A stretch of DNA of 17,769 bases. Origin: a virus (Duplodnaviria; Heunggongvirae; Uroviricota; Caudoviricetes). The DNA is taken from the IMG/VR virus record IMGVR_UViG_2571042372_000007; one strand, given 5' to 3'. Within the stretch, counting starts at the first letter, position 1. Each line of letters starts with the position of its first letter. The position numbers were made by a program, and so were the translations under genes. The notes beneath the pieces were generated by a model that was not told where the DNA came from, ran no database searches, and saw nothing but the letters and a program-made list of their open reading frames with translations. Positions 1,445 through 17,769 of the stretch are shown here, one piece after another.

Positions 1445-1559
1445 TTCTAATGTCTCCCCAAGTCTACTCAAGTATTTAAAAACCTCTTATAATCCGCATG
1501 TTAGCGCCCCTTTTAGTCTTTTGACGTCTACTTAAGTACTCCAAAATCTACAGTCAATT

Positions 1560-1608
1560 GGGGGTACTTTTGGGGGTATTTGCTGTTCGGTTTAGTGGAG
1601 GTACCCCC
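1560..1608. promoter_or_regulatory. Inverted/direct GGGGGTAY repeats overlapping the int ribosome-binding site
   Basis: GGGGGTAC (1560-1567) and GGGGGTAT (1572-1579) direct, GTACCCCC (1601-1608) inverted; the int SD GGAGGT (1597-1602) sits inside the right arm. Confidence 0.4.
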
Positions 1609-1610
1609 AA

Positions 1611-2825
1611 GTGAAACTCAATGCCCGTCAAATAGACACTGCCAAGCCAAAAGAGAAGGCTTACAAGCTGGCTGATGGTGGTGGTCTGTATCTCTTGGTA
1701 AAACCTAGTGGAGGAAAATATTGGCGCTTCAAGTATCGTGTAGCTGGTAAAGAGAAGCTGTTAGCACTAGGTGTGTATCCTGAAGTTACCTTGGCTGATG
1801 CTCGTGCAAAACGTGAAGAAGCTAAAAGGGGTATCGCTGGGGGTATCGATCCGATGGAAGCGAAACGAGAGGAAAAGATTGCCCGGGAAACGCAGTTAAA
1901 CAACACCTTCAAAGATATTGCCCTTGAGTGGCACAGCAGCAAATTAAAAAAATGGTCTGCTGGTTATGCTTCAGACATCCTCGAAGCCTTCAACAAAGAT
2001 GTGTTCCCTTACATTGGCAAAAAACCAATCGCCGAAATCAAACCACTTGAACTGCTGAATGTGCTGCGGCGCATCGAGGGGCGCGGTGCTACCGAAAAAG
2101 CCAAAAAAGTGAGGCAGCGATGTGGGGAAGTTTTCCGCTATGCAATTGTCACTGGACGTGCTGAGTATAACCCTGCACCGGATCTCACCAGCGCGATGCA
2201 AGGTCATGAATCTAATCATTATCCTTTCCTCACAGCCAAAGAATTACCTGATTTTTTCAAGGCATTGTCCAGTTACTCAGGAAGTGCATTGGTTGTTATG
2301 GCGGCTCGTTTACTGATTATCACCGGTTTGCGGACTGGCGAACTGCGCGGTGCATTATGGGATGAAATCGATCTCAACAAGGCTATCTGGGAGATACCTG
2401 CTTCACGGATGAAAATGCGTCGCCCTCATGTAGTGCCTTTGTCTGAGCAGGCTCTTTCGCTTATTGGGCAGATTAAAGAACTAACTGGCAATTATCCGCT
2501 TATGTTTCCCGGCCGTAATGATCCAAGGAAAACAATGAGCGAGGCTAGCATAAACCAAGTATTTAAACGCATCGGCTATAACGGAAAGGTTACTGGTCAT
2601 GGCTTCCGGCACACTATGAGCACCATTTTGCATGAGCAGGGCTATAACACCGCGTGGATAGAGACACAGCTTGCGCACGTCGATAAAAACTCAATTCGTG
2701 GCACATACAACCATGCGCAATATCTGGATGGGCGGCGGGAAATGCTTCAGTGGTACGCTGATTATATGGATTCGCTCGAGCATGGCGGAAATGTGGTGCA
2801 TGGTGAGTTCGGAAAATGCGGGTGA
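1611..2825 (+). CDS. int: P4-family tyrosine integrase (site-specific recombinase), GTG start
   Basis: 404-aa ORF; N-terminus MKLNARQIDTAKPKEKAYKLADGGGLYLLVKPSGGKYWRFKYR is the typical P4-integrase arm-binding region; C-terminal catalytic region with HGFRHT and a downstream conserved Tyr; directly adjacent to a tRNA gene. Confidence 0.9.
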   Translation: MKLNARQIDTAKPKEKAYKLADGGGLYLLVKPSGGKYWRFKYRVAGKEKLLALGVYPEVTLADARAKREEAKRGIAGGIDPMEAKREEKIARETQLNNTFKDIALEWHSSKLKKWSAGYASDILEAFNKDVFPYIGKKPIAEIKPLELLNVLRRIEGRGATEKAKKVRQRCGEVFRYAIVTGRAEYNPAPDLTSAMQGHESNHYPFLTAKELPDFFKALSSYSGSALVVMAARLLIITGLRTGELRGALWDEIDLNKAIWEIPASRMKMRRPHVVPLSEQALSLIGQIKELTGNYPLMFPGRNDPRKTMSEASINQVFKRIGYNGKVTGHGFRHTMSTILHEQGYNTAWIETQLAHVDKNSIRGTYNHAQYLDGRREMLQWYADYMDSLEHGGNVVHGEFGKCG

Positions 2826-2953
2826 CTGGTTGAGTATACAGTAGTAGACTTTGAGCGACGAAAGAAAAGGCTGTGTCTAGGGGCGCTCCCGAAAATCCGT
2901 ACACCTCGACGGACTGGTACAGCCACTACAGTAGAGGACGCTGAGGTGTGCGT

Positions 2954-3751
2954 ATGATTGATATTCATGCCGAATTAAACGAATACAAAAAAGATTTTAT
3001 TTCTTTACGTGAATTTCTTGAGATCGTGCTTAAGGTCGCTGGTGATGATTATGATGTTTCAGATGTCATAACTTGGATACTCAGGAGAATAAGCGGAGAA
3101 CATATCCGCCTGTACACAGTAAATGAATTTAAGCTGTTGGAATCTTTTTGTAACCCGTATCGGGATGAATTTGATAATGATGTTCTTTATAGAAATCTGA
3201 ATGCGGTTCGGAAACGTGGTTGTTTACCTGGTGAGAGGGATGAAAATGGTTTTCTGGTGTCCGGTTATTGGGAAGATCCCGAATTTGAGAACATTGGATT
3301 TATAAGGGGTGAAATTTTCGCAATTTTTCCCGATGTCCTTGACGCGTTAACGAAGCTGGAAGGCGCTAACTCTTCTGAAAATGACGAGGCACAAGGACGC
3401 GATATTGAAAAGAAAGAGTTGCGTACAGAGGATGATTTATTATCCCAAATCGCAATGCTGGAAAAAGAAAACGCAGAGTTAAGGGCAAGGATAGAGCAGT
3501 TAGAGCAAGAGCGCCCGATACACTTATATAAATACTGGGATAAAGACCCATTAGCTAAGGCTATTGAGATTAGAAACAGAGAGTGGGCCAATTACGATCC
3601 AGAAAATGATTTTGCCACCAGGGGAAATCAAGAAGCGATAACCAGGGAGCTTAAGCAGTGGGGGGCAAGTAATGCACTTGCAACGCTCATAGAGAGGACT
3701 GCCTGCCCTATTAACCGAGACAACAGTCAAAAGAACGCAAAGCCGGATTAA
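2954..3751 (+). CDS. Hypothetical protein, 265 aa, AT-rich, predicted coiled-coil segment; integrase-proximal cargo
   Basis: ORF with SD GAGGTG (2943-2948) 5 nt before ATG 2954 (the track's 2948 start is a GTG two codons upstream). Contains heptad-like IAMLEKENAELRARIEQLEQE. No family recognised. Confidence 0.6.
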   Translation: MIDIHAELNEYKKDFISLREFLEIVLKVAGDDYDVSDVITWILRRISGEHIRLYTVNEFKLLESFCNPYRDEFDNDVLYRNLNAVRKRGCLPGERDENGFLVSGYWEDPEFENIGFIRGEIFAIFPDVLDALTKLEGANSSENDEAQGRDIEKKELRTEDDLLSQIAMLEKENAELRARIEQLEQERPIHLYKYWDKDPLAKAIEIRNREWANYDPENDFATRGNQEAITRELKQWGASNALATLIERTACPINRDNSQKNAKPD

Positions 3752-3765
3752 CGCACCATACCGCA

Positions 3766-3877
3766 TACCCTGAGGGTGATTTACTGTTACCCTGAGGGTA
3801 TTTTTTTATCTTCCCCGTCAATTTTACCATCACCCTTAGGGTAGATTTCCTTCCGGTAACCATTAGGCCTGAGGGTA
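3766..3877. promoter_or_regulatory. Array of four CCT(G/T)AGGGT palindromic sites upstream of alpA
   Basis: TACCCTGAGGGT (3766-3777), TACCCTGAGGGTA (3788-3800), ACCCTTAGGGTA (3832-3843), CCTGAGGGTA (3868-3877); each a dyad-symmetric candidate operator. Confidence 0.5.
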
Positions 3878-3945
3878 TGAAAATATTCGTTATTTCTGTG
3901 CCATGATTACCTCGTCAAATTGAGTAGACGTTATGAGGTAAATAT

Positions 3946-4143
3946 ATGTCAAATACGCTTATTCGTTTAACAGAAGTTCAGCGTAGAACTGGATATAGCA
4001 AGGCATGGATTTATCGCCTTATGGGGCAAGGTAAATTTCCTGCATCAGTTAAAATTGGCTCGCGAGCTATTGCTTTCGTTGAGAGTGAAATTGACGAGTG
4101 GATTAATCAGCGTATTGCGGAATCACGCGGAACAGCTACCTGA
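3946..4143 (+). CDS. alpA: AlpA-family transcriptional regulator (phage excisionase/activator-like HTH)
   Basis: 65-aa protein LIRLTEVQRRTGYSKAWIYRLMGQGKFPASVKIGSRAIAFVESEIDEWINQR matches the AlpA/Phage_AlpA pattern (HTH, then GxR...W.ESEIDEWI). Confidence 0.85.
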   Translation: MSNTLIRLTEVQRRTGYSKAWIYRLMGQGKFPASVKIGSRAIAFVESEIDEWINQRIAESRGTAT

Positions 4144-4220
4144 TTAAATGGCTACGGGGCTATTGCCCCCAGCTATCCACCAGCAAATAAAAGTAACTTA
4201 ATTCGATAGCAGGAGTTTTT

Positions 4221-5021
4221 ATGAAATTTCCAAAAACGCCCGTACAGGGGCGGGGCTTCGTTCGGCCTGAAAACCAGAATCTGCAAAATTTCGGCGAAAT
4301 TATCCCGATTATTTCCGGCGTTATTGGCGGGAGTGAAACCACTATTGTTAGCGCCAGAGCGTTACATAAGGCGTTAGGTGTAGGGCGCGTTTTCCGTTCG
4401 TGGATCAAGGGGCGCATTGAAGAATATGGGTTCACGGAAGGCGTGGATTATGAGGTTGTTGAATATTTGAGCCGACCCGATCCGGTGAGCGCAAAATCTC
4501 GCCAGCAAACCGCTCTTGAGTACATCATCACAGTGAACATGGCGAAAGAACTGGCGATGGTCGAACGTACCGAACAGGGCCGCGCCGTTCGCCAGTACTT
4601 TATCAAATGCGAGGAGGAGCTACACAAGGTTGCGCCTGTTCGTTCCGCAGCGTTACGCCGGGAACTGAAAGCCCGTATCACAGTTGCCAGCTACTTTAAG
4701 CCAATGTGTGCCGCGCTGGAGGCGTACCGGGCTGAACTGGGTAAAAACACACTCCAGCACCACTACACCACGGAAGCGAACATGCTGGCGCGTATCGTGC
4801 TGGGTGGCATGACTGCAAAACAGTGGGCACTGGCGAACGGCATTACAGGCGAACCACGCGACCACATGAGCACGTTGCAGCTTGAGCACCTTTCTTACCT
4901 TGAGCAGAGCAATATCACGCTGATTGAGTTAGGCCAGGACTACCACCAGCGGAAGGCTGAATTAATTCGTCTTTCGCAGCGTTGGTTAGCCCGTCGTATG
5001 GAGGAAAACAGCCATGTGTAA
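4221..5021 (+). CDS. Phage antirepressor-family protein (ORF6N/Ant-like N-terminal domain)
   Basis: SD CAGGAG before ATG; motif SARALHKALGVGRVFRSWIKGRIEEYGFTEGVDYEV resembles the antirepressor N-terminal domain signature (LH..LGV...F..WI..RI..YGF.EG.DY). Assigned from memory of the family pattern. Confidence 0.55.
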   Translation: MKFPKTPVQGRGFVRPENQNLQNFGEIIPIISGVIGGSETTIVSARALHKALGVGRVFRSWIKGRIEEYGFTEGVDYEVVEYLSRPDPVSAKSRQQTALEYIITVNMAKELAMVERTEQGRAVRQYFIKCEEELHKVAPVRSAALRRELKARITVASYFKPMCAALEAYRAELGKNTLQHHYTTEANMLARIVLGGMTAKQWALANGITGEPRDHMSTLQLEHLSYLEQSNITLIELGQDYHQRKAELIRLSQRWLARRMEENSHV

Positions 5022-5480
5022 CGCTCTGACCGTTACAAAAAGAGAAAGCGCCCCGTTGCCGGAGCGCCTTTGTGAACGAATAGCCTACTGCGCCATATTG
5101 CTTACTGTCTACGAGGCAGATTATAGCGTTGTGGTCGCACAGAGTGAAGGCGCTGATCACCGTTACTACAGCACGCCAGAAATGCAGAATATTTTGCTGC
5201 AAAATGTCGTTGGTCACACTGTCCGGAAAGCAAAAAATTTTGCTGGTGGCGCGACTGATGCGATTTTGTCAGGTCGCCAGGTGCTGATCAATCTGATGTC
5301 TGATTTCGTTCTGGATAAAACAAAGGCGACCGCAGAGGGCCGCCAGTGGGAAAGCTACATACTTGAACGCATCGCCAACAATGCCAGATTTGCGGCTGGT
5401 GGGCAATGTGTCAGCTTTGCACCAATGACTCTATGTTTAACTGAGGGTCATTATGGTGAATATGCTGGCTTGCTGGTGGG
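5014..5480 (+). other. ORF translationally coupled to the antirepressor gene (ATGTGTAA overlap); 3' end undefined
   Basis: Starts MCNALTVTKRES at the same CATGTGTAA junction type seen at 6593, which argues the start is real. The frame has no stop until 6600 and turns Cys/Ser-rich and junk-like from about residue 155. End coordinate is approximate. Confidence 0.3.
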
Positions 5481-5738
5481 CTATTCCTGCTCTTTAACAT
5501 TGCCATGCCGCGATGTTTTCCAGGTATGCGACCCCATTTTTGTGTGCCTGTACTCTTTAAGGAATTTCTCAAGGACAAACGCACAGGGCGCGAATCTGTC
5601 TGACTCATGCTCGTACGCTATCTTTCTGCGCTGTCTTTTCCGTGCCGGTGATGGTGTATTGGTTGATTCTTTGTTGGTCATGGCGCTGCCCTGTAAAATA
5701 ATGCACCGTAGTTCCTCACACCACGGCACCTATAGTGG

Positions 5739-6044
5739 TTATTCCTGCTCTTTAGCTTTGCGCCGCTGGAGTTCTTCACGCGCGACGGTGACGAGTTGCC
5801 CGATTTCCTCGGCAGCTTTGACTCCGATTTTTTCCACCTGCGCTAGGGCATCGAGCGAAGAAACCAGGGGATTTTCTCCGCTTCCTTCTGCCTGGCGGCG
5901 GGCGATTTCACCGCGAACGGCTGTAATCACGAAAGCGGCTATTGTTTCCCCTTCCGTTTTCGAATTTTCCATTTCCTCGATTACATCATGGGGGAAGCGG
6001 ATATTTTTCATTTGCGATCTGCTGTTGATGTTTCCTGTTGCCAT
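5739..6044 (-). CDS. Small protein, possible ribbon-helix-helix-type regulator, divergent from the replication operon
   Basis: 101-aa minus-strand ORF MATGNINSRSQMKNIRFPHDVIEEMENSKTEGETIAAFVITAVRGEIARRQ; an N-terminal beta-strand-like segment followed by helices looks RHH-like. Weak SD; start may instead be the internal MKNIRF. Confidence 0.45.
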   Translation of the reverse strand: MATGNINSRSQMKNIRFPHDVIEEMENSKTEGETIAAFVITAVRGEIARRQAEGSGENPLVSSLDALAQVEKIGVKAAEEIGQLVTVAREELQRRKAKEQE

Positions 6045-6135
6045 CAGAATGTCCGGTTATTTTGAGGTGTGTACACATTACACCAAAAGGTGTGTTGATA
6101 AAACACTTGACACTGTAGCACACTTAAATTTAATT

Positions 6136-6168
6136 TGTATATACACCAATTGTTGTGGTGTATATACA
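6136..6168. promoter_or_regulatory. 13-bp perfect inverted repeat (TGTATATACACCA N7 TGGTGTATATACA) in the divergent intergenic region
   Basis: Arms at 6136-6148 and 6156-6168 are exact reverse complements; located between the minus-strand gene (ends 6044) and the plus-strand operon start (6235). Additional GTGT/ACAC dyads at 6065-6090. Confidence 0.6.
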
Positions 6169-6234
6169 GCAACGCCCCGCAGTGGTGGCACACATGCAGG
6201 GCGTCTAACCAAACCGTTAAACGAGGTAACGATT

Positions 6235-6600
6235 ATGGCTGGAACACAGCATACCCAAACTCACCCTAAATTTATATACACCTTCCTGGCGGTGCACCGT
6301 GATTGCATTGCTGACGGTAAAAACACTGTACACGTAGCCGCCGATACGCTGGTTGATGCCTGCGAGATGCTCAATGACATGGGCTATATCTCGGCAACAT
6401 GGAAAGGGCGCGAAGAAAACACGCTGTTTATTCAGAAATGCGAAAACAATTTTATCTGGCGTTTTATCGCCCTGAGTACGGCACAACCGCGCGTGATTCA
6501 CATCGAGGCCACCAGCGAACAGGAAGCACGCCAGCAATCTCCTGATGGCTGCGTGATGGTATTCGCTGCCCGTATTCGCCAGGAGGTGGAGCATGTGTAA
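6235..6600 (+). CDS. Hypothetical protein, 121 aa (first gene of the replication operon)
   Basis: ATG 6235 preceded by SD-like GAGGTAACG; the protein-like tail of the 528-aa track ORF (MAGTQHTQTHPKFIYTFLAVHRDC...); stop overlaps the next gene start (ATGTGTAA). Confidence 0.55.
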   Translation: MAGTQHTQTHPKFIYTFLAVHRDCIADGKNTVHVAADTLVDACEMLNDMGYISATWKGREENTLFIQKCENNFIWRFIALSTAQPRVIHIEATSEQEARQQSPDGCVMVFAARIRQEVEHV

Positions 6601-6817
6601 TGCAACATGGCCTGATGCAGCGGTAGACGCTATCAAAACGCTGATGGATTCACTTATTGAGATTTCTGCTATCGCTGGTGTGGCGCATAAACACGCAGCC
6701 AGAGAATCAGAATGCATCTCCCATTATTTAGCATTTGTGCAGCTAAAAGCCGATCAGGCACTGGATAAGGCCGGAAAAATTATCATGGCTGATGTGCAGG
6801 AGGTGCACCATGCATAA
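6593..6817 (+). CDS. Hypothetical protein, 74 aa
   Basis: Start coupled to the upstream stop; ends ...QEVHHA with stop overlapping the next start (CCATGCATAA). Confidence 0.5.
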   Translation: MCNATWPDAAVDAIKTLMDSLIEISAIAGVAHKHAARESECISHYLAFVQLKADQALDKAGKIIMADVQEVHHA

Positions 6818-7175
6818 CCTGTCAATTTCTGACCTTAACAGCATTCAGTTTGACGAGAAATTTACCGGGCAGTTGCTGGTCAATGTGGAGAACGGGCGCA
6901 TAGTGCGTAATTACCACCTGCCGGATGGTGCAATTGCCGGAAGCGTTGAAGCATTGCTGGAGCTGGCGGAACGTGCGCGACTGATTAAGCCGTCAACGTG
7001 CCATCACGATGATGATCTGCATTTTACCGGGTGTATGGTGAGTCACTACGAAAACGGCGTTGAAGTATCCTGCGAACGTCTGCGTGATGATTGCTGTTTC
7101 GGCACACTGCCGGAATTTATCGAATTGCTGACCAGTTGCGGTTATCAGGTCATTCAGGGGGGTAAACATGCGTGA
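6810..7175 (+). CDS. Hypothetical protein, 121 aa, paralogue of the 7394..7594 product
   Basis: Preferred start ATG 6810 (MHNLSISDL) overlapping the upstream stop, rather than the track's 6792; shares an FTG(Q/R)(L/V)LV...G motif with the 66-aa protein at 7394. Confidence 0.5.
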   Translation: MHNLSISDLNSIQFDEKFTGQLLVNVENGRIVRNYHLPDGAIAGSVEALLELAERARLIKPSTCHHDDDLHFTGCMVSHYENGVEVSCERLRDDCCFGTLPEFIELLTSCGYQVIQGGKHA

Positions 7176-7401
7176 TGATCGTTTTAATTCCCTGAAACAG
7201 GAGTTTGATGGCGCACCGGAAGATACATCGGGCGCATTGTTGAGCATTGCTGACATGATGAAAGCTGCATATTTTCTTATCAATACCAGTGGCTACAAGT
7301 CAGAGGGTGAAATGATTCTTAGTATTGCGTCGGACTATGCTGAATATGTGGCAGAGACGCGTTACAGAAGAAAATCTCTGGAGGATGTAAGCCATGCATA
7401 A
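7168..7401 (+). CDS. Hypothetical protein, 77 aa
   Basis: ATG overlaps upstream stop (ATGCGTGA); ends ...EDVSHA with stop overlapping the next start (CCATGCATAA), mirroring the 6593..6817 gene. Confidence 0.5.
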   Translation: MRDDRFNSLKQEFDGAPEDTSGALLSIADMMKAAYFLINTSGYKSEGEMILSIASDYAEYVAETRYRRKSLEDVSHA

Positions 7402-7594
7402 TCATGAAGCGCATGTACCCGTAGTGCTTAATGTGCCAGATGATTTCACCGGACGCGTGCTGGTTTACCTGGATAAAGGGAAAGTGAAATCACAATGCCG
7501 ACTGAAAAGTAATGAGATTGTTGGTTCTCCTGAATTTTTTTCTGAACTTTGTATTCGTGCGGAAATAAAACCGGAACTGCTGACAGGAAAATAA
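7394..7594 (+). CDS. Hypothetical protein, 66 aa, paralogue of the 6810..7175 product
   Basis: Begins MHNHEA; motif PDDFTGRVLVYLDKGKVK parallels DEKFTGQLLVNVENGRIV in the 6810 gene. Confidence 0.5.
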   Translation: MHNHEAHVPVVLNVPDDFTGRVLVYLDKGKVKSQCRLKSNEIVGSPEFFSELCIRAEIKPELLTGK

Positions 7595-7598
7595 AACC

Positions 7599-7889
7599 AT
7601 GAAAAAGAAATATTCTGGCTTTACTGCCAGCGGCCTCTCTCGGCCTGAAATCCGCCCCGGTGATATTTTCCGGGACACCAGACGCGGGGGACGGGTGGTT
7701 ATTCGTCACGTTACGCCAGGCAATATCACCTACCGCCGTGAGGCTTACGAATATGACTGCGTAATGCCGCGCCGTCAGTTTGAGCGTGATTTTATTCTGG
7801 TGGAAAACAAACAACAGGCAGTGGCGAGACGTGCAGCCACGAATATTAAAAAAATCCGGGCAATGTTGGTTGCGGGAGGTAAGAAGTGA
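7599..7889 (+). CDS. Hypothetical basic protein, 96 aa
   Basis: ORF immediately upstream of, and overlapping (GTGA), the primase/helicase gene start; Arg/Lys-rich. Confidence 0.5.
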   Translation: MKKKYSGFTASGLSRPEIRPGDIFRDTRRGGRVVIRHVTPGNITYRREAYEYDCVMPRRQFERDFILVENKQQAVARRAATNIKKIRAMLVAGGKK

Positions 7890-9691
7890 AAAACGCACCG
7901 AATTTAAAATATCAGCCGAAGGATAAATTCACCGAGGTAATCATTTTTGCCGGGACGGATGCTTACGCCCATGCTCAACACTGGATTGAAAGCGAAGGAC
8001 GAAAACACGGCGATAACGTGCCTCCTGTTTACCTGGGGCCAAAGCAACTGGCAGACCTGGCGAATATCCGCATTGTCGACGATGAACGCCGCTTTGCGCG
8101 TGTCTATCTCGCGGGGGAGATAGAGCCAATCCAGATCAATGCTATTGCTGAAAAGCTGGCGCTGGCTGGTGTACAGGACGCGAAATTATACAAAGGTATC
8201 ACCGACCGGGAGCCGGAAAACTGGCGCGACTACCTGCAACGGATCCGCGAACAGGCAGAGAGTGGGGAAGTTTCAGCGATGAAATTAGCCACAAAAAATA
8301 TTGACCTATCCAGGCCAGCACTAAATCAGATGGGAGCCAGCCAGAGAGGGGAAGTGTTACTTGAATATTATGGAAGAGCACTGGCTATAAATGATGATTC
8401 TGATGTAGTTCACCATTACAACGGAATTGTCTGGGTGCCTGTATCTGATAAGGAACTCCAGCGGTCTATGGCGAAGATTTTTATTGATGCTGGAATCAGT
8501 TATTCGCAAAACGCCATTAAATTTGCCGTAGACACAATGAAATTGAGCCTGCCTGTTATGGGCGGGGCAGACAGGAATCTTATTGGATTCAGTAACGGGG
8601 TATTTGATACCCGGACGGGAAATTTTCGGGAGCATAACAAAAATGACTGGTTGTTAAATGCCAGTGAATTACCGTTCAGCCCACCAGCAGAGGGGGAAAC
8701 GCTGGCAACACATGCGCCGAATTTCTGGAAGTGGCTGCGTCGTTCGGTGGCAGATAATGATCGTAAAGCTGATCGCGTACTGGCGGCATTATTCATGGTA
8801 CTGGCGAACCGGTACGACTGGCAGTTATTCCTTGAGGTAACAGGCCCAGGCGGAAGCGGTAAAAGTGTGATGGCTGAGATTTGTACCATGCTGGCGGGTA
8901 AGGCCAACACAGTATCGGCAAGCATGAAGGCTCTGGAAGACGCAAGGGAACGCGCGTTAGTAGTTGGCTTTTCGCTGATTATCATGCCGGATATGACTCG
9001 CTACGCTGGCGATGGTGCAGGAATTAAGGCAATTACTGGCGGCGACAAGGTGGCAATTGATCCGAAACATAAAGCCCCCTACTCCACACGTATTCCGGCA
9101 GTAGTGCTTGCGGTAAACAATAACGCCATGTCATTCAGTGACCGAAGCGGGGGGATCTCGCGTCGTAGGGTGATATTTAATTTCTCTGAGGTCGTACCGG
9201 AGAACGAACGCGATCCCATGCTGGCGGAAAAGATAGAAGGCGAACTGGCGGTAGTGATTCGCCATTTGCTAACACGATTTACCGACCAGGACGAAGCTAA
9301 AAGACTACTTTATGAGCAGCAAAAATCAGAAGAAGCGCTGTTGATAAAGCGCGAAGGTGATTCACTGGTGGACTTTTGCGGCTATCTGATGTCGTTGGTT
9401 AAATGTGAAGGAATGATGGTGGGCAATGCGGAAATAGTGCCATTTAGCCCGAGGCGATACCTGTATCATGCTTATTTAGCCTATATGTCAGCGCATGGCC
9501 TGGGAAAACCAGTATCACTGACACGCTTTGGTACTGATATGCCAGGAGCTATGGCGGAATACGGAAAGGAGTATAAGCGGGCTAAATGCACTAAAGGCCC
9601 GGATAAAGGGCGAGTGATAACAAATGTTCTGTTAGATGATGATGCTGATGGCTGGTTGCCAGCAGCTACAGGGATTAACGACAGAACATAA
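7886..9691 (+). CDS. Replication protein: P4-alpha-like primase/helicase C-terminal region (D5_N-like plus SF3 helicase)
   Basis: 601-aa ORF with Walker A VTGPGGSGKS and a downstream Walker-B-like acidic stretch (LIIMPD), typical of the phage/plasmid primase P4-family C-terminal domain; followed by an iteron-rich origin-like region. Confidence 0.85.
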   Translation: MKNAPNLKYQPKDKFTEVIIFAGTDAYAHAQHWIESEGRKHGDNVPPVYLGPKQLADLANIRIVDDERRFARVYLAGEIEPIQINAIAEKLALAGVQDAKLYKGITDREPENWRDYLQRIREQAESGEVSAMKLATKNIDLSRPALNQMGASQRGEVLLEYYGRALAINDDSDVVHHYNGIVWVPVSDKELQRSMAKIFIDAGISYSQNAIKFAVDTMKLSLPVMGGADRNLIGFSNGVFDTRTGNFREHNKNDWLLNASELPFSPPAEGETLATHAPNFWKWLRRSVADNDRKADRVLAALFMVLANRYDWQLFLEVTGPGGSGKSVMAEICTMLAGKANTVSASMKALEDARERALVVGFSLIIMPDMTRYAGDGAGIKAITGGDKVAIDPKHKAPYSTRIPAVVLAVNNNAMSFSDRSGGISRRRVIFNFSEVVPENERDPMLAEKIEGELAVVIRHLLTRFTDQDEAKRLLYEQQKSEEALLIKREGDSLVDFCGYLMSLVKCEGMMVGNAEIVPFSPRRYLYHAYLAYMSAHGLGKPVSLTRFGTDMPGAMAEYGKEYKRAKCTKGPDKGRVITNVLLDDDADGWLPAATGINDRT

Positions 9692-9718
9692 TACGAAATT
9701 TATAAGCTGAAACGTAAA

Positions 9719-9918
9719 GGTAGACGGTTGGTAGACAGATTCACTTAACCCTCTACCAACCATCTACCAATTAATATTTTGAATTATAAAGATATTTTCA
9801 ATGTGGTAGAGAGGTAGACAGTTATTTCTATATTCCTAAACCACGGGGGGTATATAAAAAACAGATAGTTAAGGGGGCATTTTTTAAATTTCTCTTTTAA
9901 CTGTCTACACTGTCTACC
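9719..9918. repeat. Iteron cluster (GGTAGAC/GGTAGAG, 8 copies in both orientations) flanking an AT-rich spacer: candidate replication origin
   Basis: GGTAGAC at 9719 and 9730; inverted CTCTACC 9751 and TCTACC 9763; GGTAGAG 9805 and GGTAGAC 9813; inverted GTCTAC 9903 and TGTCTACC 9911. AT-rich stretch TTAATATTTTGAATTATAAAGATATTTTCAAT between the pairs. Confidence 0.65.
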
Positions 9919-9998
9919 ATTTAGTAAAAATCATTAATTATCAATGAACCGCCCCGGGAATCCTGGAGACTAAACTTCCTGAGAAAGAGGTAAACAGG

Positions 9999-10325
9999 AT
10001 GACTAAAAATACTCGTTTTTCCCCCGAAGTCCGTCAACGGGCAGTCCGTATGGTTCTGGAAAGTCAGAGCGAATATGACTCACAATGGGCGACAATTTGT
10101 TCCATTGCTCCAAAGATTGGCTGTACGCCGGAGACTCTGCGTGTCTGGGTTCGCCAGCATGAGCGGGATACCGGGGGCGGTGATGGAGGGCTCACCACCG
10201 CTGAACGTCAGCGTCTGAAAGAGCTGGAACGTGAAAATCGTGAACTGCGCCGCAGTAACGATATCCTTCGCCAGGCTTCCGCTTATTTTGCGAAGGCGGA
10301 GTTCGACCGCCTCTGGAAAAAATGA
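9999..10325 (+). CDS. IS3-family transposase OrfA (HTH and leucine-zipper region)
   Basis: 108 aa, [55 protein letters not shown]...[30 protein letters not shown]. Confidence 0.85.
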
Positions 10326-11212
10326 TGCCACTGCTGGATAAGCTGCGTGAGCAGTACGGGGTCGGACCGCTATGCAGCGAACTGCATATTGCCCCGTCAA
10401 CGTATTACCACTGTCAGCAACAGCGACATCATCCGGATAAACGCAGTGCCCGTGCGCAGCGCGATGACTGGCTGAAGAAAGAGATACAGCGCGTATACGA
10501 TGAAAATCACAAGGTATACGGTGTGCGTAAAGTCTGGCGTCAGTTGTTACGGGAAGGTATCAGAGTGGCCAGATGCACTGTGGCACGTCTCATGGCGGTT
10601 ATGGGACTTGCCGGTGTTCTCCGGGGTAAAAAGGTCCGTACGACCATCAGCCGGAAAGCCGTTGCCGCAGGCGACCGCGTAAACCGTCAGTTCGTGGCAG
10701 AACGACCTGACCAGCTGTGGGTGGCTGATTTTACTTACGTCAGCACATGGCGGGGCTTCGTCTATGTGGCGTTCATCATTGATGTGTTTGCCGGATACAT
10801 CGTGGGGTGGCGGGTCTCATCGTCCATGGAAACGACATTCGTGCTGGATGCACTGGAGCAGGCGTTATGGGCCCGTCGACCGTCCGGCACGGTCCATCAC
10901 AGTGATAAAGGTTCTCAGTATGTATCGCTGGCCTACACACAGCGGCTTAAGGAAGCCGGATTACTGGCATCAACAGGAAGTACAGGCGACTCGTATGACA
11001 ACGCGATGGCGGAGAGCATCAATGGTCTTTACAAAGCGGAGGTAATACACCGTAAGAGCTGGAAAAACCGTGCAGAAGTGGAACTGGCCACACTCACGTG
11101 GGTGGACTGGTATAACAATCGACGATTGCTGGAAAGGCTGGGCCATACTCCTCCGGCAGAAGCAGAAAAAGCTTATTATGCTTCCATCGGAAACGATGAT
11201 CTGGCAGCCTGA
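10322..11212 (+). CDS. IS3-family transposase OrfB (DDE catalytic domain), expressed as OrfAB by -1 frameshift
   Basis: 296 aa; overlaps orfA by ATGA; DDE-type integrase core (WVADFTYV..., [10 protein letters not shown]..., YDNAMAES...) characteristic of IS3 transposases. Confidence 0.85.
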
Positions 11213-11254
11213 GTTCACAGATAAAACACTCTCCAGGAAACCCGGGGCGGTTCA

Positions 11255-12119
11255 TGTTGTATCTGGAGTAAAACCTGATCCTGAGCTTGCTGCTTCAATT
11301 AAAACTGAAATTGACAGCTTAGATGCAAAAATCAACGAAGCCAAAGCTGATGCTCGTCAGTATAGTGGTGGTCTGATAAAGGTACTAAAATTATCTACTG
11401 TTGCCACTGAAGAGCAGACTATGGCAATGTTGCAGCAAAAGTACCTCACAGCCAAGTATGGCCTCGCTGAAGTTAAGCTGGCATCAGTACAAGATAATGA
11501 CGCAAAAAACAGTACTGAAACGGAAGTAACAGCCAAAAATTCCCAAGATCAACTTCCTTTACTCCCGCCAGCGGATGGTCCGTTTGGCTTAGAAGCCGGT
11601 CTTACACAGAAAAACATCGAAGATATGATCGGTGCTAAGCTCAAGCCACTACCAGACAGTGTGAATCTGTATACTTCTGATAAATTACCGAAGCAAAACG
11701 CAGATTTTGAAATGTATGGTTTGTTGATCTCCCCGAAAGCTGGTTTATGTCAAATACGGGCTTTAGGAAAAAATATTGATACTGATAGCTATGGATTGGC
11801 TCTTAAATCCAAGTTTGAAGAATTGAGTAATTCTTTAAGTTCTCTGTATGGAAAGGCTGATACTACAGACTTTTTGCTGGCTGGTTCAATTTGGAAAGAT
11901 CCTCAGGACTGGATGAGGGGGCTAAACAAAAAAGAACGCTTCTTATCTGCCACATGGAAGGGAACAAAAGAAATACCATTAAAAAACAATATTGATACTA
12001 TCTCTATTGAGGCCAGAGCGAACAATTCCACTCAGGGATATGTCTATCTGCAGTACTCATTTACAAATGACGAAATTTGTCAGGCAGAAATTGAAGGGGC
12101 GAAAAAAAGTTCCCTTTAA
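11255..12119 (+). pseudogene. Hypothetical protein, apparently 5'-truncated at the IS629-like right end (possible internal restart at ATG 11421)
   Basis: Reading frame is continuous from inside the IS (track ORF 11070..12119) with no start codon immediately after the IS end; first in-frame ATG after the IS is 11421. Followed by a strong terminator. Confidence 0.45.
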
Positions 12120-13221: not shown

Positions 13222-13320
13222 ATCAGTAAGGGGCGGTTATTGCCCCTTTCCTCCATACCCACAACGCATTCCCTTTCCGCATGAAATTATTTTTTATCGT
13301 ATATGCATGAGGTGAGCTAC

Positions 13321-13848
13321 ATGTTGATGAGTAAAGCCGAATACGCCAAATACAAAGGCGTAAGCCGCCAGACAGTTTACGACTGGCTCGAGAAAGGCGA
13401 AGTGGTCATGTCCGGTAAAAAAATTGATGTGGAAGCGACAGAGCAGCGGAACAGCCCACCAGCACAGGGGAAAGACACCATTTCTGAAATGTGGCCAGAA
13501 AGAACGCTGGAAATGACATGGGGCGAGTTCTGGAAAGCAGTTAAGGCCAGAGACGGTAAAATTCCTGCGCCAGTAACGGACGAGGGCATACAGCAGCGTG
13601 TGCTGTATGCAGCCGGGGAATTAGGCTGGGAAGTGCACTTTCTTGATGATGGTGCTATCTGTCTTGAGGATGATGAAGGGCAGCATTACTTTGAAAAATA
13701 CAATTTGCGAGGTAATGCCAGGCTGGCAATTCGTATGCTGCGTTGCGAACTCTGCTATGTTGCCAGCGATTGTCCCGATGAACAGGACACATGGAGTGAG
13801 GCAGGACTAAACGCCTTGGCTGAATGGGAAAAATCAGGCCATCAATGA
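13321..13848 (+). CDS. HTH-domain DNA-binding protein, about 176 aa
   Basis: SD GAGGTG 6 nt before ATG 13321; N-terminus MSKAEYAKYKGVSRQTVYDWLEKGEV is a canonical helix-turn-helix; lies directly upstream of the GTGTCAA repeat array. Confidence 0.6.
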   Translation: MLMSKAEYAKYKGVSRQTVYDWLEKGEVVMSGKKIDVEATEQRNSPPAQGKDTISEMWPERTLEMTWGEFWKAVKARDGKIPAPVTDEGIQQRVLYAAGELGWEVHFLDDGAICLEDDEGQHYFEKYNLRGNARLAIRMLRCELCYVASDCPDEQDTWSEAGLNALAEWEKSGHQ

Positions 13849-13854
13849 CCTCAA

Positions 13855-14136
13855 AAAGTGTCAAGTTGAGCAGTTTGCCAGGTTGACACTTTACACTCTG
13901 AACGCGAAAAAGTGTCAACCTCGCTGGATGCCTCGCCATTACTGGCCTTGTACCATATTCACCACGTCAAAAAACCGAAAAAATAGCGAAAAGTGTCAAG
14001 TTGCCATGCTTAGAAATGCTAAGGTTTGATAAGGTTTTTCGCGAAAAAGTGTCAAGTGTGTCAACCTGCGGTATTAAGATTTATTAAGGTCTTAAGCCGG
14101 AAAGTGTCAACCAGCCCCTAAGATTTCCTAAGGTGT
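13855..14136. repeat. Array of AAAGTGTCAA(S) repeats (six direct, one inverted) with paired TAAGRTT half-sites
   Basis: AGTGTCAA cores at 13857, 13911, 13992, 14048, 14103, plus GTGTCAACC at 14058 and inverted TTGACACT at 13883; AAGGTT/AAGATT pairs at about 14020-14037, 14076-14095 and 14119-14136, giving three tandem units of about 50 bp. Confidence 0.65.
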
Positions 14137-14141
14137 AAATC

Positions 14142-14321
14142 ATGACCATCACCGAAGCCGATATGCTGGAGATGCTCCGCAGCATTGCCGAAATCAAACA
14201 ACCAGCAAGCAAAATTAACAGGTGTTCAGCGCCTGTTTCCGTTGTGCTGCAACAGGAACGCCACCAGCATGATGATGTGAGGCCGTATCAGTGGAAGAAA
14301 CCGGACAGGCTGCGGCGATAA
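14142..14321 (+). CDS. Small hypothetical ORF, 59 aa
   Basis: ATG 14142 with SD AAGGTG 5 nt upstream; below the 60-aa cutoff of the supplied track; MTITEADMLEMLRSIAEIKQ... Confidence 0.3.
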   Translation: MTITEADMLEMLRSIAEIKQPASKINRCSAPVSVVLQQERHQHDDVRPYQWKKPDRLRR

Positions 14322-14670
14322 AGGGTTGTTTAAAAGGTAGTTAAAAATTGAGTTCGCTAGCCGTCTAGCTTATCGATGCGTTAATTGGTTGATATTTTTT
14401 ATGTCGTAATATTGTGTTCTGTGGCTGGTGGGAGTTTATGTTGAAAACTGCCGATTCTGATAGGCTTTTTGCCATACGTATGCAGGAGAATTGACCATGT
14501 GAAGCAGGCAGGCATGTTGAGGAGAGCACTTACGCAGGATTGCTTAATCATTATTGAAAGACTCTGTGTTTCAAGTATCCTAATCAGTTAACTTCAGGAG
14601 CAAATTTTGAGCTTATACGGATCCCCGTATTATGAGCCTCAATTGAAAATTTTGGGTAAGTGATTTAAAG

Positions 14671-15897
14671 ATGATTGCAGGCGCGAAAAGAGGGAGAAAC
14701 GAACGCAAGGGGCTTCACTCTTGGCATCCATACTATGCGGGCTATTCAGAGTCATTTGTGGCTTCTGTTTTGCAGGCTGAAGGAGTTAAGTCGTCCGCTA
14801 CCGTTCTTGATCCTTGGATGGGAAGCGGTACCACTGGTATAGTTTGTCAAAAGCAAACCATAAAGTGTATTGGAGCAGATATTAATCCTGTAATGAGCTA
14901 TTTTGCTGCAGCCAAAAGTAGGGATAATATTTCAGCGCTGGATTATACCGGAGAGCAACTCCTGGAAAGGATACTGCTTTGCTTTAGAAAAAAAACAAAA
15001 GATATAACTGAGTCATCGAAGGGCTATCCACTTATTGAACAGTTACAAAAGTTTTATAAATGTATCTGTGATCAGTTTATGGATAAAGGACAAAATGATA
15101 TCGTAAATCCTTTAAAAGCATTTTATTGCAGTGTTTTATTTTATACTGTTCGCAATGTCCTTGATGTTAGGTCAACTTCAAATCCTACATGGATTTCTAA
15201 AAAAGTAGACTTTAATAATAAATTTGATATTTGTTTTGAATATAATAAAAATTTTAAAATTATGCGTGAGCAGTTAAGTGAATATTATGGCAGCGCTAAT
15301 GGGGGGGCATGTTACTCGATTTTAAACGTGGATAGTAAAAAATTAAATATTAAAAGTAACACAATTGATCTTGTTATTACATCGCCACCGTATTTAACAC
15401 GAATAGACTATGCCGTTTCTACTCGTCTTGAGTTGGAAATAATTTTAGGGAGTGAGGGATATAAGTCTCTTAGAAAGGAAATGATGGGCACGACGACTGT
15501 GCCTAAAGTTGCGGATGAAATTAATAAAAAATGGGGGCCATTGTGTATGGATGTTTTGTCATCGGTAACATCGCATACATCAAGAGCATCTGGAAGTTAT
15601 TACCTTAAAAATAAAATTAGATATTTTTCTGATGCGTATGAGTCATTAATGGAAATCTTTAGAGTTTTAAAGGTAGGTTGCTCTGGTTATTTTGTAATAC
15701 AAAATTCATATTATAAGGAAATAGAGATTCCGCTTTATGATATTTATTGTGAAATGGCGCTTTCTATTGGGTTTTCAGAAGCGAAATGTGTGAGAGAAGA
15801 TCAAGTTAAAGCAATATTTGGACAAATAAATACCAAGTCAAAAAATTATATTAAAGATAAAGTTTATTTTGAAAAAATCATAAGGATAACAAAATGA
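14671..15897 (+). CDS. SAM-dependent methyltransferase (putative DNA N6-adenine/N4-cytosine MTase), motif I before motif IV
   Basis: 408 aa; AdoMet-binding motif DPWMGSGTTG (about 14809-14838) and catalytic SPPY (about 15384-15395) in the ITSPPYLTRIDY context; AT-rich; stop overlaps the start of the next gene (ATGA). Confidence 0.75.
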   Translation: MIAGAKRGRNERKGLHSWHPYYAGYSESFVASVLQAEGVKSSATVLDPWMGSGTTGIVCQKQTIKCIGADINPVMSYFAAAKSRDNISALDYTGEQLLERILLCFRKKTKDITESSKGYPLIEQLQKFYKCICDQFMDKGQNDIVNPLKAFYCSVLFYTVRNVLDVRSTSNPTWISKKVDFNNKFDICFEYNKNFKIMREQLSEYYGSANGGACYSILNVDSKKLNIKSNTIDLVITSPPYLTRIDYAVSTRLELEIILGSEGYKSLRKEMMGTTTVPKVADEINKKWGPLCMDVLSSVTSHTSRASGSYYLKNKIRYFSDAYESLMEIFRVLKVGCSGYFVIQNSYYKEIEIPLYDIYCEMALSIGFSEAKCVREDQVKAIFGQINTKSKNYIKDKVYFEKIIRITK

Positions 15898-17006
15898 ATG
15901 ACGTAACTAAATTGCTATCTCAGATAGATGAAAAAAGAGATGAGGTAGTAACTGATTCTTATACCATATCATGGCGTGAAGTAATTAATCTATATAAAGA
16001 AAATGAGATAACCATTTCTCCAGACTACCAAAGGCTTTTTCGTTGGGATAACGCAAGACAAAGCCAATTTATCGAGTCATTACTTTTAAATATACCTACG
16101 CCAACACTTTTTTTCTACATTGATAATAATGGTAAGCAGGAGGTTATCGATGGATTGCAACGTGTGAGTACTATAATTAGATTTTTTTCAGAGGATATTT
16201 TTAATAAGGAAGAAATAGATAATGCAAAGAAACAAAACTCTGTAAATGATGTCCGTAATCCAACTGTTCTTGATGATGTGCCTATAATTACAGAATTAAA
16301 TGGATGGACTGCAAAAGGATTGCCGGACAAAGTTAGCCGAACTATAAAAAATGCGCGAGTAAATGTTGTTATTTTGGAGCAAGAAACAAAACCTGAAACT
16401 AAATATAATGTTTTTAAACGACTGAATAGGTCTGGTGTTCGTTTGAGTGACCAGGAAATACGTAATTGCATGGCTAGATTAGCAGGGAATGAATTTGCAG
16501 ATCGCTTACGTAAGATGGCCGAAATTGATGGTATTGTTCAAGCTCTTGGAATAAATGAAGATGGCCAAAAATCTCAAGGTGTTGAGGAAGCTTTGCTACG
16601 AGTTATGGCATCTTTGACTTATGCGGATAAATTTAGCCATAGTGTAACTGACTTTTTGGATGAATTTATGTTCTACGCGGCAGAACATAATGTTATTGAT
16701 ATTAATTTTGAATTAAAAATAAAAAGAACTTTTGATTTGATAAATATTGCTGGTTTATCTGGTAAAGCATTTAAATTTAGAAAGGATGGTGCTCCAAGTG
16801 GCCCGTTTAGTACTAATTTATTAGATGTTGTTGCTGTTGGTATTTTTAGTAATGTAGATAATTTAACACCTGCTGAGGTGGCGAAAAGATTTGATTATTT
16901 AATGGATGGTGAGATCAAAGAATTAAGAGCTTGTACTGGTTCTGGATCTAATACTAAAGCCAAATTAGAGAAAAGAATCGCTCTTGGGAAGAAGGTGTTT
17001 GGATAA
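15894..17006 (+). CDS. DUF262 (ParB/Srx-like NTPase, GmrS-type N-terminal domain) protein
   Basis: 370 aa; signature SPDYQRLFRW (about 16017-16046), IDGLQR (about 16144-16161, canonical DGQQR) and FKRLNRSGVRLS; no recognisable fused nuclease (DUF1524/HNH) domain. Confidence 0.75.
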   Translation: MNDVTKLLSQIDEKRDEVVTDSYTISWREVINLYKENEITISPDYQRLFRWDNARQSQFIESLLLNIPTPTLFFYIDNNGKQEVIDGLQRVSTIIRFFSEDIFNKEEIDNAKKQNSVNDVRNPTVLDDVPIITELNGWTAKGLPDKVSRTIKNARVNVVILEQETKPETKYNVFKRLNRSGVRLSDQEIRNCMARLAGNEFADRLRKMAEIDGIVQALGINEDGQKSQGVEEALLRVMASLTYADKFSHSVTDFLDEFMFYAAEHNVIDINFELKIKRTFDLINIAGLSGKAFKFRKDGAPSGPFSTNLLDVVAVGIFSNVDNLTPAEVAKRFDYLMDGEIKELRACTGSGSNTKAKLEKRIALGKKVFG

Positions 17007-17007
17007 A

Positions 17008-17769
17008 ATGAGAATATCAGATTTCGATGATTTCAAGGTGATGTTGGAAAAGACGAAAAATGAAAGTCTTGGATTCCTTGAGAGCATAAAGTCTATTAAT
17101 GAGTTTATGTCGAGATCAGGTGATAAAGACAAGGAGGATATGTTTAGAATAATATCGGTCCCAATGATTTATTCTTCTTGGGAGGGTTTTTTTACTGAAA
17201 CAATGTCAGTTTGCTTAAATACATTGAAACTCTCAGATAGAGAGGCATTTAGATACTCTGCAGAAATTCGAGCACTTTGGTTGCAACGAGAACCATTTTA
17301 TAGCAAGTATGTAGATATGATAAAAAATATTTATGATGCTGACTCACACCGAAGCATTGTCCATAATGGCGCCCAAATAAAAAAGAAAGTTACGAAGGGG
17401 GCGTTTAAACTAACAAGTGAGGTAATTCAACACATTGACAGGTTTAATAAATCCACATTATCAGATTGCGATGTTTCTGAATTAGTTATGACATTTTCCA
17501 ATGTGAATGAAATGGTTGTCAAGGTGAATTTCGATGCTATAGGTTTGGATTATTCATCACTTGATTTATCGCAACTAGGTGAGGTTGTTGGCCTTAGAAA
17601 TTCTTTGGGACATGGGGAGTTTAAAAGTAGTGTTAACCCTAGGAAATTTAATTCAATAATTGTGTATGTGGAAAATCTGATCATCGATTTGAATCAATGT
17701 GCTATAACGTGGTTGGATAAATTAGAAGATGAAATAACTAAGCCTGAAGATAATGAGACTATTCAGTGA
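17008..17769 (+). CDS. Hypothetical protein with HEPN-like Rx4H motif (candidate RNase effector)
   Basis: Preferred start ATG 17008, one nt after the upstream stop (the track's 16984 is a TTG); 253 aa; C-terminal LRNSLGHGEF (about 17593-17622) fits the HEPN R-x4-6-H active-site motif; complete, stop at 17767-17769. Confidence 0.55.
   Translation: MRISDFDDFKVMLEKTKNESLGFLESIKSINEFMSRSGDKDKEDMFRIISVPMIYSSWEGFFTETMSVCLNTLKLSDREAFRYSAEIRALWLQREPFYSKYVDMIKNIYDADSHRSIVHNGAQIKKKVTKGAFKLTSEVIQHIDRFNKSTLSDCDVSELVMTFSNVNEMVVKVNFDAIGLDYSSLDLSQLGEVVGLRNSLGHGEFKSSVNPRKFNSIIVYVENLIIDLNQCAITWLDKLEDEITKPEDNETIQ

Follow-up and report, generated by a model that had tools for sequence, protein, structure and literature searches.

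The question addressed here is what a dense cluster of short repeats does in a 17,769-nucleotide stretch of DNA that is listed in IMG/VR as a virus of the Caudoviricetes (record IMGVR_UViG_2571042372_000007; the whole stretch is hereafter called the window). The cluster occupies positions 13855-14136, directly downstream of a plus-strand gene (13321..13848) for a 175-residue protein with a winged helix-turn-helix (HTH) domain, designated HTH175. The original prediction, made from the sequence letters, had offered a packaging site, a second replication origin or an activator-binding array within a satellite element. Our analysis suggests that the array is very probably the cognate multi-site DNA target of HTH175, as judged from sequence comparison, and that protein and array may well form the packaging-specificity module (a pac- or cosB-like site) of a phage-inducible chromosomal island (PICI) of the EcCICFT073 type.

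Repeat array and adjacent HTH gene

The array is non-coding and fills the space between the stop of the HTH175 open reading frame (ORF) and the start of a 59-residue ORF (14142-14321). It holds six exact copies of AAAGTGTCAA, five on the plus strand (starting at 13855, 13909, 13990, 14046 and 14101) and one on the minus strand (13883-13892), a count that none of 200 dinucleotide-preserving shuffles reached. A seventh GTGTCAA at 14058 lacks the AAA prefix, and seven of the eight GTGTCAA copies in the window fall inside 250 bp. The paired motif TAAGRT-N4-TAAGRT occurs three times (14020, 14075 and 14119), with 0.01 occurrences expected. The repeat cluster of about 280 bp noted in the original prediction is therefore real, with motif counts far above chance. 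Its tally of at least seven copies, one of them inverted, holds if the copy without AAA is counted; its three paired TAAGRTT half-sites are present as TAAGRT pairs, but the exact TAAGRTT is found in only four of the six half-sites, the others being TAAGGTC and TAAGGTG.

The left part of the array (13855..13918) is an inverted-repeat module composed of S1 (13855-13864, plus strand), S2 (13883-13892, minus strand) and S3 (13909-13918, plus strand), in which S1 and S2 are convergent and S2 and S3 divergent. The right part (13990..14136) carries the direct plus-strand sites S4 (13990-13999), S5 (14046-14055), S5b (14058-14064) and S6 (14101-14110). Dyads follow S4, S5b and S6, namely TAAGGT(TTGA)TAAGGT at 14020-14035, TAAGAT(TTAT)TAAGGT at 14075-14090 and TAAGAT(TTCC)TAAGGT at 14119-14134, and a small palindrome, CTTAG-N5-CTAAG, is located at 14009-14023. 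The tandem units of roughly 50 bp described earlier were recovered in this right part, where the S4-S5 and S5-S6 spacings are 56 and 55 bp and a unit of 36 nt recurs with 75% identity, but not in the left module. Between the two modules lie a non-repeat block, CGCCATTACTGGCCTTG (13934..13950), which is near-palindromic in the window and a candidate cleavage, nick or nucleation point, and three A-tracts about 10 bp apart (13969..13992, read from the sequence) that run into S4 and whose phasing suggests an intrinsic DNA bend. Tandem Repeats Finder made no tandem-array call over the region, and an Rfam search gave no match in the array.

The HTH gene beside the array is likewise real, its start at 13321 agreeing with the RefSeq annotation and with the family alignment. 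The AlphaFold model of HTH175 is confident (pLDDT 87.7), and the protein begins with a winged HTH (residues 1-47), which a disordered linker (45-56) connects to a C-terminal alpha/beta domain of unknown fold. The top profile match was phrog_57, the terminase small subunit (TerS), at 5e-6 over residues 1-42 only; the same profile is the best match, again via the N-terminal domain, for two divergent clades of the family. Weak matches to excisionase and HTH_17 families were also obtained, and among Pfam profiles no TerS family matched, HTH_17 alone appearing below its cut-off. Neither 50,697 phage records nor 72,556 plasmids yielded a tblastn match to HTH175, and comparison with the TerS of phage Rac-SA53 revealed no similarity. 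Sequence and profile searches against solved structures returned nothing significant (the SRCR domain of TMPRSS2, at E ~0.3, was disregarded). By sequence, HTH175 is not a member of the Rpp or Nu1 families. Upstream of the gene, a hairpin at 13229-13250 (GGGGC-GGTTATT-GCCCC-TTT), which follows a 90-residue ORF, resembles a terminator, and in several islands the conserved HTH module starts just past it, at 13250. The HTH175 gene may thus have its own promoter region at 13250-13320.

Conservation of gene and array

The HTH175 family was found in Enterobacterales only, and all of its members are annotated as hypothetical. Residues 1-42 are near-invariant (78% mean pairwise identity) with a fixed recognition helix, VSRQTVYDW; the linker is not conserved and the mean identity of the C-terminal domain is 43%. 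We compared 17 genome loci from ten genera (Escherichia, Pantoea, Rouxiella, Serratia, Raoultella, Buttiauxella, Erwinia, Lelliottia, Pseudocitrobacter and Enterobacter). Copies of GTGTCAA occur near the HTH175 gene in 16 of the 17, even where the proteins are only 38-42% identical; the sole exception (L019) has no more than the N-terminal 43 residues in common with the family. In three of these loci the GTGTCAA cluster is located 1.6-4 kb downstream of the gene. Across 74 IMG/VR loci, the heptamer reaches a density of 9.0 per kb within the 450 bp past the gene, compared with 0.034 per kb elsewhere. The module is carried by 170 of 5,426 complete E. coli genomes (about 3%) and by many other Enterobacterales.

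The sites follow the 12-bp consensus AAAGTGTCAA-S-Y (64 sites in 18 arrays), with GTGTAAA or GCGTCAA in a few clades; the arrays of Pantoea (L004 and L005) consist mostly of the GTGTAAA variant. In the relatives the direct sites always lie on the strand of the gene, and an inverted site pair right after the gene stop, convergent or divergent, is kept in all genera examined. Spacers cannot be aligned across genera, yet the sites, a central block CGCC(A/G)TTACTGG(N)(Y)TTG and the GCTTAGAAATGCTAAGG/TAAGRT dyad elements persist. The CGCCATTACTGGCCTTG block is found mid-array in E. coli, Raoultella, Pantoea and Serratia, where it takes the form of a perfect CCAGTACTGG; Erwinia and a further Serratia locus have it in a looser form. 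The array is also kept where the small ORF is missing (L003, the L013 clade and L043), whichever cargo follows. In Serratia aquatilis the protein has the same N-terminus joined to an unrelated C-terminal domain, and the array is still there, 3.6 kb off, with a three-gene defence cargo cluster between HTH gene and array (L018 11121-14054). Furthermore, arrays recombine with one another at GTGTCAA sites.

A near-invariant N-terminus, near-invariant sites and their persistence across genera are together the signature of a protein with a constrained cognate DNA target. The co-conservation of gene and array strongly supports the earlier suggestion that the array belongs to the HTH protein, and it is on these comparisons that we regard the array as the very probable multi-site target of HTH175.

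The island and candidate functions of the array

The window opens in proA, followed by the tRNA-Thr gene thrW (1369-1444). The left attachment site, attL, lies at 1427-1444, and the tRNA 3' end is repeated ~360 bp past the window end, which puts attR at ~18133 in window coordinates. From thrW onward the genes encode a tyrosine integrase, an AlpA-type small HTH protein, AntA, YlcI/YnfO, an Icd-like protein, small ORFs and DUF4222; next come a D5_N/DUF5906 primase (7886-9691), IS629, a few small genes, HTH175, the array, the small ORF and a defence cluster. The backbone of integrase, AlpA-type HTH, YlcI/YnfO, Icd-like, DUF4222, primase (44% identical) and terminal small ORF is common to this island and the experimentally studied PICI EcCICFT073. 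PerC is a further EcCICFT073 backbone gene, present in the related A17 and O104:H4 islands and absent from the window. The traits by which Gram-negative PICIs are recognized are all present: an att-site integrase, an AlpA-type regulator, a replicase followed by an origin, genes that run in one direction, a size of about 10-18 kb and the lack of a complete virion gene set. Since gene order and primase agree with EcCICFT073, the island is, on its gene content, an EcCICFT073-like Gram-negative PICI, that is, a phage satellite, at thrW, as the original prediction had guessed in speaking of a satellite element.

Does the array serve replication? It does look like iterons with A-tracts, and in viral contigs unrelated to the island (L155 and L175) TTGACAC arrays directly adjoin genes for primase or RepA-like proteins, so that a second origin resembling the iteron-bearing cis replication region (crr) of P4 comes to mind. 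However, the same array, in a module that is ~94% identical in DNA, accompanies four unrelated replicases, each with its own iterons directly downstream: the D5_N/DUF5906 primase of the window (GGTAGACRG), a RepA-family helicase in strain A17 (AAAAGTGAGG), a DUF927 protein in O104:H4 (CGGGATAT) and a P4-alpha-like primase in Pantoea (TTATCTACC). An array that stays constant across four replicase types is not the origin, and it follows HTH175 rather than a replicase. The P4 crr, moreover, carries the same iterons as the P4 ori, which differs from the situation in the window island. The second-origin proposal is therefore very improbable and was rejected. The true origin is likely the stretch of GGTAGAC(A/G)G iterons and AT-rich DNA at 9718..9926, directly after the primase gene. 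Arrays of 9-18 TTGACAC/GTGTCAA copies were also seen in metagenomic viral contigs (L155 11122-11500, L175 9908-10200, and L172, L110, L145 and L185), either directly downstream of a gene for a primase or RepA-like protein or at the end of a contig; they look like the origin iterons of other, unrelated elements. Since the heptamer occurs there beside replicase genes, it is not itself diagnostic of function.

A role in excision, with HTH175 as the excisionase (recombination directionality factor) and the array as its att-arm binding region, is the least probable reading that we considered. The array is ~4 kb from attR on its right and 12 kb from attL on its left, and in other islands 0.8-3.4 kb separate it from attR. 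The arm-type repeats of the integrase are TTGGGGGTA, not the array sites, and a separate AlpA-type small HTH gene adjoins int. With replicase iterons, attR and integrase arm sites all placed elsewhere, the other essential cis sites of the island are accounted for.

A comparison of the 3' ends of the two islands points to packaging. In EcCICFT073 this end consists of PerC, several genes, cos1 (GGGCGGCGACCT), rppA (c1503, 144 residues), cos2 (inverted), a 93-residue ORF and attR, and the cos/rppA module selects island DNA for packaging (PMC6739421). The slot before the homologous small ORF is thus taken by cos1-rppA-cos2 in EcCICFT073 and by HTH175 and the array in the window. The small ORF of the window (14142..14321, plus strand) starts 6 bp after the array, ends in ...PYQWKKPDRLRR and is the homologue of the last gene of EcCICFT073: it matches phrog_7271 (5e-6) and phrog_1561 (2e-5), the latter being matched by the 93-residue CFT073 protein at 4e-54, and the C-termini of the two proteins align in BLASTP at 7e-6. 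They share the C-terminal pattern WKKPxRLRR (HWKKPERLRR in the 93-residue and QWKKPDRLRR in the 59-residue protein) and have similar N-termini, MTEAEILRLIRRVAGI and MTITEADMLEMLRSIAEI, respectively. Small ORFs of this kind also follow the arrays of Pantoea and other loci. The best PHROG of RppA is phrog_57 (4e-8), over the same N-terminal stretch as in HTH175, and HTH175, like Rpp proteins, has an N-terminal domain resembling the DNA-binding domain of lambda-type TerS. GTGTCAA is entirely absent from EcCICFT073, and the HTH175/array and cos/rppA modules never occurred together in the examples examined. The architecture of the array, which is polar and unites several classes of motif with a central block that is conserved, was also counted in favor of packaging. 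Of the functions named in the original prediction, we infer that a TerS-type packaging site is the best supported, through the synteny with cos1-rppA-cos2 and the shared TerS-type domain. The TGACAC contained in the R3 site that has been proposed for cos1 of EcCICFT073 was set aside as a coincidence; according to a review, this part varies between PICIs.

Several findings weigh against a packaging function. The C-terminal domain of HTH175 is unlike any known terminase oligomerization domain, and the fold class of the protein also holds excisionases and regulators (Xis, Cox, BldC). Homology to Rpp does not extend over the full length, hhalign giving 57.6% over 28 HTH columns only, and BLASTP against Rpp an E value of 0.06 over 35 residues. 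Lambda cosN (GGGCGGCGACCT) is absent from the window, where the best match has 3 mismatches and is at chance level, and neither lambda cosN nor the P2/P4 cos was found in 20 loci examined. A comparison of the 50,697 phage records with the array, with the DNA flanking it and with the left portion of the island (1445-9990) yielded matches to the ends of IS629 only. In addition, the number of copies of an 8-bp microsatellite, GCTTGCCA, located between S1 and S2, differs between close relatives (2-5 copies in L023-L028 and one in the window's type, near 13870-13882 of the window), which shifts the S1-S2 spacing from 25 to 33, 41, 49 or 57 bp in otherwise near-identical arrays. Such steps speak against the left module forming a nucleoprotein complex of rigid geometry. 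Finally, with IS629 inserted, the island in the window may perhaps not be fully functional.

Since helper cos sites are absent, a headful (pac-type) helper fits best, or else a cos helper with another cosN. We propose by analogy that HTH175 works like Rpp or the TerS of Staphylococcus aureus pathogenicity islands (SaPIs), although it is not to be filed as an Rpp. Induction of the island by a helper phage would lead to the synthesis of HTH175, whose TerS-type winged helix would bind the 12-bp AAAGTGTCAA-S-Y sites on both sides of the CGCCATTACTGGCCTTG block, with help from the phased A-tracts and perhaps also from the TAAGRT dyads. The faster-evolving C-terminal domain would then recruit the helper terminase, either directly or via the helper small subunit, so that island DNA rather than helper DNA would be cut near the array and packaged. 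More tentatively, HTH175 could represent a third kind of satellite packaging adaptor, in which a fixed DNA-binding domain is combined with swappable helper-binding domains.

Regulation is the main competitor of this packaging proposal. The array could be an operator set, and HTH175 either a Cox/BldC/Xis-type repressor or activator or a sensor like Stl that detects a helper protein through its variable C-terminal domain; we consider this unlikely. The array would then control the small ORF and the cargo hotspot downstream, or read-through from the island operon. In favor of this reading, Stl likewise combines a conserved DNA-binding domain with a C-terminal domain that varies, and HTH175 has the weak excisionase and HTH_17 matches mentioned above. 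The ribosome-binding site of the 59-residue ORF directly adjoins the last repeat unit, and every site contains, on the minus strand, TTGACA, the sigma-70 -35 hexamer. A promoter scan, however, found nothing inside the array, and the array is kept without the small ORF, with any cargo and at 1.6-3.6 kb from the gene. The homologous small ORF of EcCICFT073 has no such array, and seven sites, a central block and dyads exceed the needs of a simple operator. The activator-binding array of the original prediction thus keeps some plausibility, but packaging is better supported.

The central block brings up a conjugative transfer origin (oriT), in which the TTACTGG/CYTT core would be a ColE1-type nic site, HTH175 a relaxosome accessory protein and the relaxase would be supplied in trans. 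The sequence TACTGGCTT is exact in L011, L012 and L018 and also occurs in ColE1 (1463-1471, minus strand, upstream of mobC), where the nic position reportedly is CTGG/CTTA, and an oriT typically has a conserved core with bends and sites for accessory proteins on its flanks. On the other hand, the match covers 8-9 nt only and the rest of the ColE1 oriT is dissimilar; the chance that the match is spurious is appreciable. The island has no relaxase, its backbone is that of a phage satellite, and HTH175 and array occur on none of the 72,556 plasmids, the array search giving only chance matches. An oriT, in place of or alongside a packaging site, is therefore improbable; if it were true, a phage-satellite backbone would also move by conjugation.

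Cargo, possible helpers and comparison with known systems

The DNA past the small ORF (14671-17769, continuing in L020 21008-21769) encodes a type II-like DNA methyltransferase, a DUF262/GmrSD_N protein and a HEPN-like nuclease of the MAE_28990 family, at a GC content of ~0.28-0.35. The DUF262 protein matches NsnA of PADLOC at 1e-55 and also PD-T4-2_A, and this three-gene cargo looks defence-like, in particular Menshen-like. The corresponding cargo consists of an AAA ATPase and a DUF4435 protein, which are PARIS-like, in O104:H4 (L101 13215-15171) and of a DUF3800 pair in A17 (L002 15382-16574). Defence cargo always starts directly past the array, except in two loci where it immediately precedes it. 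The neighboring slot is a hotspot for cargo, and the array forms the left edge of this defence-gene hotspot. In SaPIs, accessory genes are located between pac and the end of the element, and an exchange of the satellite genes between pac site and end via packaging-linked transfer has been proposed (PMC12829572). The position of the cargo past the array matches this pac-to-end exchange idea.

Genes of several relatives hint at the kinds of helpers. Two adjacent genes in A17 (L002 12682-14005) and in L012 (8651-9963), one of them DUF2213, match different parts of the 545-residue phrog_6216, which in Rac-SA53-, Chronis- and PdC23-like phages belongs to the head module, between portal/Mu-F-like genes and the capsid gene. 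A capsid-assembly hijack is possible for these DUF2213/phrog_6216 genes, which would make them a helper clue. In Pantoea stewartii (L004 7170-9982, and similarly in L005 and L010), a tail-fibre-like protein (phrog_817), a baseplate hub (phrog_196) and a gpV-like spike with an Apex motif are encoded just upstream of the HTH gene, in islands that combine the P4-alpha-like primase with the same module; it would be unusual for a satellite to supply a baseplate centre of its own. It is the head-module genes of Rac-SA53 type and the Pantoea baseplate genes together that give this hint. Rac-SA53-like phages were considered as the helper on account of the A17 DUF2213 gene and rejected, as their TerS is unrelated to HTH175 and the island in the window has no DUF2213 gene. 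IMG/VR scans did not lead to a helper either: matches to the conserved block had no GTGTCAA nearby and were judged, by their sequence pattern, to be chance occurrences in coding DNA, none resembling a helper cos, and matches to paired sites were mostly due to chance or to unrelated iteron arrays. Virome contig ends, considered as physical DNA ends, look like assembly or prediction boundaries and were uninformative.

Other features of the island concern its integrity and its ends. IS629, of the IS3 family, occupies ~9940-11260, immediately past the iterons next to the primase gene. Relative to the islands of O104:H4 and E. ruysiae, the one in the window lacks the genes for ProQ/FinO and PerC as well as the N-terminus of a 380-residue lipoprotein gene, and this copy may therefore be impaired. 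Repeats of the form TTGGGGGTAC-TTTTGGGGGTAT occur near both island ends (L020 5558-5579, equivalent to 5558-5579 of the window, and 22052-22073) and are probably arm-type sites of the integrase. Past attR lies a truncated second integrase gene, indicating tandem islands at thrW. Downstream of the small ORF, a degenerate reversed site, TGGTTGATATTTT, is present at 14386..14398 and likewise after the small ORF of EcCICFT073 (L221 3374-3670); small ORF and TGGTTGATATTTT are thus common to both islands despite their different packaging modules.

No description of the HTH175 family or of the array was found in the literature searched. According to the study of EcCIMP1, PICIs lacking recognizable packaging modules, termed 'type C', are abundant, and the packaging mechanism of EcCIMP1 itself is hard to characterize (PMC11773190). 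Many Gram-negative PICIs have an integrase, AlpA and a primase and no recognizable packaging genes, and for one large group of them the module described here is a candidate determinant. If HTH175 is indeed a third kind of adaptor, this would explain how abundant PICIs without a recognizable packaging module are mobilized. If packaging starts at the array, this would explain how islands swap and spread defence systems, such as the Menshen-like one described here and the PARIS-like one in O104:H4. A site of ~300 bp and one small protein would also be a potential tool for transducible constructs.

Among known systems, Rpp (redirecting phage packaging) of EcCICFT073 (PMC6739421; PMC9026076) shares with HTH175 the island backbone and the slot, which follows the genes for replication and accessory functions and precedes the homologous terminal ORF. 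Each is a small protein with an N-terminal winged helix that has phrog_57 as its best match, the DNA-contact residues being conserved and the rest variable, and in both cases the DNA target is island-specific and absent from phages. Rpp family members further form a heterodimer with the helper TerS and block packaging of the helper. Here, however, no helper-type cosQ/cosN adjoins the gene, whereas EcCICFT073 has cosN on both sides of rppA; 6-7 sites take the place of one proposed R3 site, and the array is located downstream rather than upstream of the HTH175 gene. With the TerS/pac system of SaPIs, the module shares a satellite-encoded DNA-recognition subunit, a position at the 3' end of the late operon and accessory or defence genes between site and end, and both suit headful helpers that have no sequence in common with the satellite. 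SaPI TerS is a recognizable homologue of phage TerS, whereas HTH175 shares only the class of the DNA-binding domain. P2 Cox, 186 Apl and BldC belong to the same winged-helix fold class and bind several repeats cooperatively, but their sites are contiguous, with a spacing of ~10 bp, whereas those in the window are 25-81 bp apart. In pacL-pacC-pacR of the Bacillus phage SPP1 and in cosB of lambda (R3-I1-R2-R1), several sites for the small subunit, some of them inverted, flank or adjoin the cut site, with bent DNA between them. Although the sequences are unrelated, the layout of the array resembles that of these two, with sites on either side of a candidate cut point.
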